Virus record (IMG/VR): IMGVR_UViG_2531839130_000013
From: a virus
Taxonomy: Duplodnaviria > Heunggongvirae > Uroviricota > Caudoviricetes
Strand: one strand, 5' to 3'
Length of the DNA: 45,266 bases
The notes under the pieces are model-generated. The model saw only the letters and a list, made by a program, of their open reading frames with translations, was not told where the DNA came from and ran no database searches. This document shows positions 17,382-18,029 of the stretch, in pieces (position 1 is the stretch's first letter; every line of letters begins with the position of its first letter). The translations under genes were made by a program, and so were the position numbers.

Positions 17382-17807
17382 ATGTTTGGTATTTTCAAAA
17401 AGAAAACCCGCAAGGCCATTACCGAAGTGAAGAAGATGGAGAACCGCGACGCAGTGGAGGCGACCGTCTGGGGCGCGTATTCCATTGCATACGCTGACGG
17501 CACCTGTGATGCGAAAGAAATCGCAGTACTGGAGAAAACCATTGCAGCACTTCCTGCCTTTGCGCCGTTCTCCGGTGAGATTGCCCAGATGAGCGCCAAT
17601 ATCCGCGCCCGTTATGAAGCATCCCCGCGTTCAGCCAATGCCGAAGCCCTTCGTCAGCTGGCTGATGTCGCCGGTACTGATGATGCAGTTAATGTGCTGT
17701 GCCTGTGTCTGGATATCGCTGACCAGGATGGCATTGGTCCGGATGAAGAAGCACAGCTCAAGAAAATTGCGCAGGCGCTTCAGCTACCGCTGGAGCAGTA
17801 CCTGTGA
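17382..17807 (+). CDS. Hypothetical protein (141 aa), possibly TerB-like
   Basis: Soluble acidic protein; composition and length reminiscent of TerB-like domains, but no diagnostic motif verified. Confidence 0.45.
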   Translation: MFGIFKKKTRKAITEVKKMENRDAVEATVWGAYSIAYADGTCDAKEIAVLEKTIAALPAFAPFSGEIAQMSANIRARYEASPRSANAEALRQLADVAGTDDAVNVLCLCLDIADQDGIGPDEEAQLKKIAQALQLPLEQYL

Positions 17808-17956
17808 AAAGTGCGCGCCTTGTGCTGGCTGCCATCCTGCTGTTTCTGGTAGTGGCAGTGGATTTCACCGGACGGCTGATGTCGGTGCTGGCAGATGGTG
17901 TGCTGGTGGTGATGGCGCTGGTCGTGCTCCGGCCTTTACTGCGTAAATCTGAATAA
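17804..17956 (+). CDS. Small hydrophobic peptide (50 aa, two predicted TM segments)
   Basis: GTG start overlapping the previous stop; hand-translated VKSARLVLAAILLFLVVAVDFTGRLMSVLADGVLVVMALVVLRPLLRKSE. Confidence 0.3.
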   Translation: MKSARLVLAAILLFLVVAVDFTGRLMSVLADGVLVVMALVVLRPLLRKSE

Positions 17957-18007
17957 CACCACACAAAAGGCATCTGCGGGTGCCTTTGACGGGGTATTGT
18001 TTTTTAC

Positions 18008-18029
18008 GGGCCGCTGGTGGCCCTTTTTT
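18008..18029 (+). terminator. Intrinsic terminator immediately upstream of the lysis cassette
   Basis: gggcc-gctggt-ggccc hairpin followed by TTTTTT, 20 nt before the holin ribosome-binding site; a second hairpin at 17967-17986. Confidence 0.5.

Follow-up and report, generated by a model that had tools for sequence, protein, structure and literature searches.

A tciAB gene pair with a putative Shine-Dalgarno-burying leader in the terminator-flanked late-operon cargo slot of a lambdoid Escherichia coli prophage

We analysed a stretch of 45,266 nucleotides (nt) of viral DNA (IMG/VR record IMGVR_UViG_2531839130_000013, hereafter the window), a lambdoid prophage of Escherichia coli, and concentrated on two overlapping genes and two hairpins directly upstream of its lysis genes. 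The genes are a tciA/tciB pair (tciAB, encoding a TerB-family protein and a small hydrophobic peptide) in the cargo slot of a late operon that would depend on Q. Terminators would insulate the pair, and it is preceded by a leader predicted to bury the Shine-Dalgarno (SD) sequence of tciA. We put the probability of this reading as a whole at about 0.7. As far as a preliminary description of the region went, its finding is textbook: a named gene pair in a cargo slot, with terminators that are overridden by Q-modified polymerase. The SD-sequestering leader of tciA, the least ordinary feature here, had been missed. The coordinates of all features are collected in the table below.

The larger open reading frame (ORF) encodes a protein of 141 amino acids (aa) that had been left unassigned, with the advice to search it for TerB or related domains. 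This search gave a match with Pfam TerB (PF05099) in two stretches (32.4 bits with a gathering cut-off of 24.4, E 1.2e-7), and the protein also matches PHROG 632 ('tellurite resistance', E 4e-65) and shares 85.8% amino-acid and 82% nucleotide identity with TciA of phage P1. All 120 homologues among the matches listed carry PF05099 or bear the name TerB or TciA, and in E. coli genomes the Prokaryotic Genome Annotation Pipeline (PGAP) names the two products 'tellurite resistance TerB family protein' and 'DUF3927 family protein'. By sequence, the product is best classed as a TerB-family protein and a TciA homologue; the 'tellurite resistance' label would be a name given by homology only, in phage P1 as well. 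The AlphaFold2 model of TciA (predicted local distance difference test score 87) is an all-helical bundle of six helices, and the protein is classed as cytoplasmic. The best Foldseek match of the model in the PDB was 2h5n, with a probability of 1.0 but an E-value of 0.078 and a template modelling score of 0.48-0.57; 2h5n is presumably among the entries listed with TerB-like structures. No relevant solved relative of TciA was found in the PDB by sequence or profile. The protein contains two ADGxxxxxE-type motifs (YADGTCDAKE, residues 37-46, and ADQDGIGPDEE, residues 113-123). PADLOC gave no defence-system match for TciA or TciB, on which ground we rejected a defence-system identity, and NCBIfam yielded merely a sub-threshold DjlA match. 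As a guess, the pair may have a membrane-associated late function just before lysis.

The second gene, present as described earlier with its GTG start, overlaps tciA by 4 nt (GTGA), and this overlap is predicted to couple its translation to that of tciA. Inspection of the 50-aa product points to two hydrophobic segments, at about residues 5-19 and 27-42, as its two putative membrane helices; it matches Pfam DUF3927 (PF13064; 49 bits, cut-off 25, E 5.9e-13) and the TciB-like PHROG 1470. A TerB gene followed by a gene for a DUF3927-type peptide was also found in phage P1, in the lytic N4-like Salmonella phage FSL SP-076 (SP-076), in the lambdoid Klebsiella phage 1 LV-2017 and in the Erwinia jumbo phage Caitlin, where the pair again lies beside tRNA genes (43% protein identity of its TerB to TciA; a weak DUF3927 match of 16 bits). 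In one case (P0051) a single database ORF fuses TerB and DUF3927. The GenBank notes for phage P1 place tciA and tciB inside the C1-repressed ban operon, and both were found non-essential by CRISPR interference (PMC10695390). The occurrence in strictly lytic N4-like and jumbo phages, together with the C1-repressed operon of phage P1, argues for use of TciAB in the lytic phase.

The genomic position of the pair was compared in a set of 84 viral loci that share a holin of at least 95% identity with that of the window, and at least ten different sequences were found upstream of the holin. The upstream sequence was tRNA-only or non-coding in 37 of these loci, tciAB in 19, a gene for an uncharacterised 247-aa protein in 8 and stx2e in 4; the other contexts included an A subunit of the heat-labile/cholera toxin (LT/CT) type (recognised by inspection of the N-terminal sequence), membrane proteins and others. 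A module of 96 nt (17953-18048) that contains both hairpins is present in 546 of 5426 complete E. coli genomes, and it accompanies the lysis cassette behind at least 10 different cargos, among them Stx2e and an LT-II-like toxin. Homology to most relatives starts at 17952/17953, the first base past the tciB stop region, whatever lies upstream. In phage phiP27, for instance, stx2e is located between homologous tRNA genes and the same holin pair, and a remnant of the 3' end of tciB and both hairpins follow stxB. Several 'empty-site' loci join 17219-17272 directly to 17953-18047, which defines the tciAB unit as 17273-17952, and the unit is indeed present or absent between otherwise collinear relatives. 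On this comparison, the tciAB interval is one of the alleles of the cargo slot, well known from lambdoid late operons, between the tRNA genes and the lysis cassette. The empty sites, which retain the P0 hairpin of the leader, may be deletions of tciAB by microhomology rather than sites that tciAB has yet to enter by insertion. A similar short string is found at both junctions of the unit (window 17266-17285 and 17946-17965), reading ATC..AAAAAACCACA on the left and ATCTGAATAACACCACA on the right.

Both hairpins of the preliminary description are present, well beyond what chance would produce, and were kept across 38 distinct leader variants from at least 84 loci. Hairpin 2 (-10.8 kcal/mol; six pairs, five of them G-C) together with its U6 tract has the make-up of a canonical intrinsic terminator; to call it strong is fair but not extreme, given the stem of 5-6 base pairs (bp). 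It had been placed 20 nt before the ribosome-binding site of the holin gene, whereas the U-tract ends just 6 nt before the holin SD. Hairpin 1 folds better than all of 200 shuffled sequences; it lacks an adjacent U-tract (the U-run lies 12 nt off) and in that respect differs from an intrinsic terminator. It probably marks or stabilises the 3' end of the tciAB unit or, alternatively, terminates weakly. A consensus scan of 14500-21000 identified 17 terminator-like sites, compared to 7.5 +/- 2.6 in shuffled sequences. Among 25 distinct variants, 95% of the hairpin cells were paired, versus 41-57% with slid partners, and the stem substitutions were mostly one-sided and G.U-compatible, which fits an RNA of the + strand. 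A minus-strand small RNA (sRNA) terminated by hairpin 1 was considered and is disfavoured, as the G.U pairs turn into A.C on that strand; the folding energy of hairpin 1 is -7.4 kcal/mol there versus -13.4 kcal/mol on the + strand.

The two hairpins appear to have different owners. Hairpin 2 was found in all but one of the 84 holin loci irrespective of the upstream sequence, and it alone is kept behind an LT/CT-like toxin gene (L058). In Klebsiella phage 1 LV-2017, by contrast, tciB is followed by hairpin 1 and not by hairpin 2; hairpin 1 is also retained in loci that have no tciAB. The whole module in addition precedes essD, a holin gene of the lambda S type unrelated to Phage_holin_8, in strains ATCC 8739 and CLSC36. 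From these comparisons we assign hairpin 1 to the 3' end of tciAB, whereas hairpin 2 with its U6 tract, judged from its distribution, is part of the lysis cassette and not of tciAB. A Mu-like prophage of E. coli strain 48956 (L090, 2485-2575; with Mor and GemA and no Q) contains the same holin pair and both hairpins, with the U-tract, invariant in all lambdoid copies, replaced by AGAUUUAC; the loss of the tract in a prophage without Q is a possible natural control for the terminator role. A natural variant, L066 (IMGVR_UViG_2740892422_000006; the part corresponding to window 17910-18012), has lost the 3' end of tciB, hairpin 1 and the 5' arm of hairpin 2 to a deletion between GCTGGTGG repeats, which could be real or an assembly artefact and leaves a holin gene without terminator. 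The LT-IIb prophage L002 (SerU-LTIIb) has two copies of the module (1900-2045 and 3600-3750), one of them a partial duplication; both follow tRNA genes, and each precedes a holin1-type gene. Klebsiella phage 1 LV-2017 (L092, 3079-3576) has a promoter-like site, the sRNA STnc100 (81 bits) and two more terminators between hairpin 1 and its holin gene, and the position of STnc100 between tciB and the holin gene indicates that the slot downstream of tciB can itself take an sRNA gene.

Transcription of the lysis genes was said to depend on antitermination or on a promoter not evident in the sequence, and a sigma-70 consensus scan revealed no promoter-like site on the + strand between 15332 and 18049; the interval 18030-18048, between hairpin 2 and the holin gene, is too short for a promoter. 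The window has the layout of a Q-dependent lambdoid late operon, with a Q gene 3.3 kb upstream of the lysis genes, a promoter-like site (candidate pR'), a close terminator (candidate tR') separated from it by a short leader, and late genes that are all on the + strand. The Q protein shares 47% identity with Q of the Stx2a phage Stx2_EH2201. The block from about 15332 onwards shares 92-95% identity with Stx2a-converting phages and phiP27, where the homologous pR'/tR' block begins at most about 40 nt past the end of the Q genes. In Shiga toxin (Stx) phages, pR' is constitutive, tR' stops transcription in lysogens and Q permits transcription to run into the toxin and lysis genes, and a separate promoter that is active in lysogens precedes the phage tRNA genes (PMC7547250). 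As no promoter was found from the terminator at 17220-17239 to the holin gene, and pR'/tR' match those of Stx2 phages, Q-dependent read-through is, by homology, the best-supported route to the lysis genes. Polymerase modified by Q at pR' (about 15305-15340) would then read through tR', the site at 15694-15711, the terminator at 17220-17239 and hairpin 2, and tciAB and the lysis genes would be reachable only by such polymerase. The earlier proposal that hairpin 2 gates the lysis cassette accordingly needs to be narrowed: the hairpin is conserved with the cassette, but the main gate would be pR'/tR', and hairpin 2, one of at least four terminators en route, would be an additional insulator rather than a switch. 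It would likely halt transcripts that are not antiterminated, coming from the tRNA promoter or from cargo promoters, short of the lethal holin genes. The dependence of lysis on antitermination stands in so far as the Q gene and the homology of pR'/tR' to Stx2a phages and phiP27 point to it; the arrangement is standard for lambdoid late operons and not special to this phage.

An unexpected finding was a structured leader of about 135 nt between the terminator after tRNA-Arg and tciA. It is conserved more strongly than the TciA protein, and the same leader was found before tciA in elements of Klebsiella, Citrobacter, Enterobacter and Pseudescherichia, before a diverged TerB allele in O121 and O157-type prophages, and before the TerB gene of the Erwinia jumbo phage. 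The terminator ahead of it is at the same position in nearly all relatives, and in every lineage the leader begins 5-10 nt past the U-tract, which leaves no room for a promoter. The outer stem sets CCUUU against the AAAGG of the SD region and buries the tciA SD (AAGGA, 17368-17372). Among 26 distinct leaders of this class (class 1), 93.8% of the cells were paired, versus 40-48% with slid partners, and double changes were observed at ten pairs (4.2 +/- 1.4 in shuffled controls, none of 500 of which reached ten). Helix P1 occurs in five covarying 7-mer versions (CACAGAG/CTCTGTG, CACAGAA/TTCTGTG, CTCAGAA/TTCTGAG, CCAAGAA/TTCTTGG and CGTAGAG/CTCTACG; shuffled control for this covariation, 3/183). 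In a set of 246 leaders, each of the 15 pairs of the outer stem was kept in 16-20 of 20 distinct strand combinations, with compensatory double changes at 6 of the 15. Counts across classes were anchored; the joint model alignment of class 1 and class 2, inconsistent in its central part, was not used for them. Single-base insertions and deletions between lineages exclude a coding function, and the alternation of pairs between G-C, G-U and A-U indicates a structure in the + strand RNA. On this comparative evidence, the leader is a conserved, covarying RNA structure.

The structure is not limited to tciA. A covariance model (R1) finds the leader before every tciA (78-165 bits) and, at 37-58 bits, a diverged class 2. 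A pattern scan for class 2 identified at least 120 viral loci (106 complete and 81 distinct among the matches listed), and BLAST retrieved class 2 from 305 phage records, including ST64B and ST104 of Salmonella as well as Stx1 and Stx2 phages, which have it between R and ant within the lysis cassette. Class-2 leaders precede genes for P22_AR_N antirepressors, KilA-N, Rha and HNH_3 proteins. The helices of class 2 and of the Erwinia jumbo phage are retained although their sequences have nothing in common with those of the other leaders. In the Stx1 converting phage NC_004913 (L351, 3001-3181) a class-2 leader is located between R (encoding lysozyme) and ant, with Rz/Rz1 after ant, so that the leader-ant unit interrupts the lysis cassette of this Stx phage. 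Rfam 15 gave no relevant match at E <= 10 for the leader or the hairpin module in 17150-18150, no match on a class-2 leader and none at the gathering score on four related loci. A weak STnc100 hit (E 0.3) at window 17208-17250 covers just the 3' terminator end of that model and is probably a mere terminator resemblance. No description of a TerB-associated RNA motif, or of a leader of ant in P22-like or Stx phages, emerged from limited literature searches. The leader appears to be the one undescribed feature here and merits follow-up. We lean towards the view that it belongs to an undescribed family of cis-regulatory phage RNAs, a portable cassette of terminator, GC hairpin and two-state SD-sequestering fold. 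With similar, limited confidence we propose that hundreds of temperate phages of enterobacteria, and at least one Erwinia jumbo phage, carry this family ahead of accessory late genes (TerB/TciA, P22-type antirepressor, KilA-N, Rha and HNH endonucleases). Its role, we suggest, again somewhat more readily than we would doubt it, would be to block translation of these genes as long as the transcript is neither processed nor made by antiterminated polymerase.

For tciA the leader would be a second, translational lock. Helix P1 and the outer stem cannot be nested together, P2 and P4 need the same strand in either class, although the sequences differ, and P1 encloses the 5' strand of the SD stem, which fits a two-state switch. 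We infer a switch in which a first state, with P1 plus P2, would leave the SD free and a second, with the outer stem plus P3/P4, would bury it. A candidate trigger is kinetic folding on fast, pause-resistant Q-modified transcripts; another is cleavage by RNase III of the structure of lower stem, internal loop and upper stem, although involvement of RNase III is at this stage pure inference by analogy.

Four other explanations were weighed. The hairpin module 17953-18048 could be or yield an Hfq-binding sRNA, independent or derived from the 3' untranslated region, that ends at hairpin 2 (compare PasD/STnc100, PasA/PasC and EcOnc42), with termination as a side effect. Pas sRNAs adjoin holin/lysozyme operons with TerB genes among their conserved neighbours (10.64898/2026.05.13.724894; PMC8550237), PasD2 starts 41 nt past a DUF3927 gene in prophage PP2 of enteropathogenic E. 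coli, STnc100 takes the corresponding place in the Klebsiella phage, and the module itself is laid out like an sRNA (hairpin, U-rich linker, terminator with U-tail). We nevertheless consider such an sRNA unlikely, as the module shows no sequence similarity to any Pas sRNA and no Rfam match at E <= 10, no promoter precedes it, and its loop nucleotides vary while the stems are kept, so that there is no conserved single-stranded seed. Homology to PasA, PasB, PasC and PasD2 (E2348/69) specifically was rejected, since a comparison with the window gave only chance 10-15-mers. Doubtful, too, is that tciAB is a classical moron, expressed in the lysogen from its own promoter, ended by hairpins 1 and 2 as its own terminator and conferring resistance to tellurite, colicins or phages; the terminator would then precede the holin gene by coincidence. 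The Ter operon phenotypes behind the gene name are host-protective, the category that PHROG gives to either family is 'moron, auxiliary metabolic gene and host takeover', some otherwise collinear loci have the cassette 17273-17952 and others lack it, and hairpin 1 follows tciB in the Klebsiella phage. A moron's own promoter together with its own terminator was not found for tciAB, however: the sigma-70 consensus scan gave no promoter-like site, the preceding terminator ends 5-10 nt before the leader, and hairpin 2, which belongs to the holin module, stays by the holin gene when tciAB is absent or replaced. The sequestered SD of tciA, the pair in strictly lytic phages, the repressor-controlled operon of phage P1 and the lack of a PADLOC defence match also speak against it.

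We give little credence to the module being a boundary sequence or recombination joint of mosaic lambdoid genomes, kept for the exchange of cassettes. The abrupt start of homology at 17952/17953 with many relatives, the linkage by the same module of different cargos to two unrelated holin families, the involvement of the module in the L066 deletion between GCTGGTGG repeats and the lack of compensatory covariation of the hairpins beyond shuffled controls would agree with a joint. Against it, nearly all stem changes are G.U-compatible on the + strand (95% paired versus about 40-57% with slid partners), the U-tract is invariant in lambdoid copies and lost in the Mu-like copy, and the position directly before the SD is identical everywhere; roles in recombination and termination are moreover compatible. 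Very improbable is that 17246-17381 is conserved as a protein-coding or DNA-level element (an operator, a promoter or either of the small ORFs at 17158-17367 and 17309-17497). These two ORFs, 62-69 codons long, do overlap the region, and its inverted repeats could be sites for protein binding, but single-nucleotide insertions and deletions between lineages break the reading frames, the switching between G-C, G-U and A-U is meaningful solely in + strand RNA, and both class 2 and the Erwinia jumbo phage keep the helices despite a complete change of sequence.

Several observations weigh against the reading of tciAB as terminator-insulated, Q-dependent cargo with an SD-burying leader. The stem of hairpin 2 is just 5-6 bp long and its shuffle z-score modest (-1.8). 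The hairpins show conservation, not covariation, with only two double changes, no better than in shuffled controls, which leaves room for the recombination joint. A consensus scan may overlook a weak or non-sigma-70 promoter inside 17240-17381 or tciAB, and both the termination efficiency and the read-through by Q are predictions. The class-1 leaders come from only about 6-8 independent lineages, helix P1 and the outer stem may either alternate or form a pseudoknot, and the Mu-like natural control is a single locus.

The pre-holin terminator is, on this comparison, a fixed part of the lysis module, common to prophages with Stx2e, LT-II-like and other cargo. This is relevant to the question of how lysogens avoid lysis while they express toxin cargo from promoters of its own. 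The leader, which Rfam lacks, is a widespread and strongly covarying structure in which the ribosome-binding site is buried; the accessory late genes that it precedes include the antirepressor gene in the lysis cassette of Stx phages. If it truly switches, late-gene control in these medically important phages would gain a second layer, at the level of translation, and the leader gives a handle on when and why TerB-type and antirepressor proteins are made.

Table. Features of the late region of the window discussed in the text (positions in the window; empty cells, nothing to report)
Feature	Position	Strand	Remarks
Late antiterminator Q gene, 124 aa	14330..14704	+	Pfam PF06530 Phage_antitermQ E 6e-51; PHROG 79
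Candidate pR'	15305..15332	+	-35 TTTACA 15305-10, -10 TATGCT 15327-32; promoter scan; function by homology
Candidate tR'	15367-15386	+	hairpin CCGCC-GCCA-GGCGG plus U6; -10.1 kcal/mol; terminator scan; function by homology
Terminator-like site	15694-15711	+	consensus scan
N6-adenine methylase	15858-16907		profile match
tRNA-Met	16957-17032	+	ARAGORN; Rfam tRNA 72.5 bits
tRNA-Arg(UCU)	17130-17206	+	ARAGORN; Rfam tRNA 70.1 bits
Intrinsic terminator after tRNA-Arg	17220..17245 (hairpin 17220-17239)	+	AGGCUCGC-UUCG-GCGGGCCU plus U5; -14.6 kcal/mol, z -3.7
tciA 5' leader, ~135 nt	17246..17381	+	covariance-model hit 17240-17388, 155.7 bits
Leader P0, GC hairpin	17251-17266	+	
Leader P1, long-range helix	17278-17285 with 17326-17333	+	CCACAGAG with CUCUGUGG
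Leader outer stem	17286-17302 with 17354-17371	+	pairs CCUUUCAGGGGUGAGC with GCUCACCCACUAAAAGG
Leader P3/P4, inner helices	17306-17317 with 17334-17345	+	
Leader P2 hairpin	17311-17323	+	uses P4 5' strand
tciA, 141 aa	17382..17807	+	ATG start; stop TGA 17805-17807
tciB-like gene (DUF3927 peptide), 50 aa	17804..17956	+	GTG start 17804-17806
Hairpin 1	17966-17987	+	9 bp, AAAGGCAUC-UGCG-GGUGCCUUU; -13.4 kcal/mol, z = -3.9
Hairpin 2	18008-18023, tail to 18033	+	GGGCC(G)-CUGG-(U)GGCCC, U6 18024-18029, then AUUU
Holin SD AGGAG	18036-18040	+	holin ATG at 18049
Holin	18049-18441	+	Pfam Phage_holin_8 E 2e-22
Second holin, three transmembrane segments	18431-18709	+	Pfam Phage_holin_3_7 E 3e-21
Endolysin	18711-19256	+	Pfam Glyco_hydro_108 plus PG_binding_3

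The proteins of the lysis cassette match PHROGs 198, 217 and 315. Between Q and candidate pR', the - strand contains an AT-rich ORF for a lipoprotein-like protein of 159 aa (14749-15228) that matches PHROG 8179 (function unknown there) and, weakly, Exc2/lipoprotein, and a bidirectional-looking hairpin (14718-14748) directly follows the Q stop codon; the ORF looks like a separate moron that displaces pR' to about 600 nt from Q. At the gathering score Rfam identified only the tRNAs, DicF and sok in the window: the DicF sRNA (4534-4585, - strand, 68.6 bits) and the sok antitoxin RNA with a hok-type locus (12150-12321, + strand, 105.5 bits), both in the early region of the prophage. The record PP818812.1 ('Actinobacillus phage vB_Apl-pPE4') is 95% identical to the window region in DNA and 99% in TciA, and its stated host looks doubtful for a lambdoid enterobacterial phage.

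Several of these features have counterparts in known systems. As in the window, tciA and tciB of phage P1 comprise a DUF3927 peptide gene with an overlapping start, have phage tRNA genes as neighbours and are under lytic-cycle control; in contrast to the window, the phage P1 genes are in the C1-repressed ban operon with a third small gene, tciC, and have no structured leader, whereas the tciAB pair of the window is in a putatively Q-dependent late operon directly before the holin gene. TerB proteins of plasmid and chromosomal ter operons share with TciA the domain family (PF05099), the two ADGxxxxxE-type repeats and, going by the model, perhaps the helical bundle. Unlike these, TciA is a stand-alone protein of 141 aa without terC, terD or terZ neighbours, and it is paired with a membrane peptide of 50 aa where ter operons have TerC. 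The late operons of Stx phages (933W, Sp5 and phiP27) have the same order of Q, pR'-tR', methylase, tRNAs, cargo and lysis genes; the pR'/tR' block, the methylase and the tRNAs are homologous to those of the window, and phiP27 also has the same holin pair and hairpin module. The window differs in its cargo, tciAB and not stx, and in its Q (PF06530, 47% identical to the compared Stx2a Q).

PasA/C, PasD and STnc100 resemble the hairpin module in their location between a DUF3927/TerB gene and the holin gene and in an intrinsic terminator that faces the lysis genes; they differ from it in sequence, in the promoter that the module lacks and, for PasA and PasC, in being on the opposite strand. In phage lambda the terminator before S is tR', and like it hairpin 2 immediately precedes the holin gene, at 2.7 kb from pR' instead of about 200 nt. 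The lambda N leader and sites of T7 are processed by RNase III, and the tciA leader resembles substrates that are activated by such a cut in its lower stem with the SD, its asymmetric internal loop and its upper stem. The logic that we propose for the leader is also that of the IsrK-orf45-anrP system of Gifsy-1 (PMC4825925), where the read-through mRNA is inactive, a helix sequesters the ribosome-binding site and alternative structures A and B are formed; activation there takes a short sRNA in trans plus a 45-codon upstream ORF, neither of which is evident in the leader of the window. Homology of the leader to IsrK was rejected, as model R1 misses the isrK-orf45 region, which matches Rfam isrK plus C4/c4-a1b1, and the Rfam models isrK, C4 and c4-a1b1 match Gifsy-1 and neither the window nor the class-2 leaders. 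In Gifsy-1 a weak, seemingly degenerate leader motif (L353, 3708-3886, - strand, 26.6 bits) is located between isrJ and tRNA-Arg. The isrK region itself (L353, 4632-4830) overlaps the Rfam C4 and c4-a1b1 hits, and by its sequence IsrK looks like a c4 immunity RNA system of the type known from phage P1.

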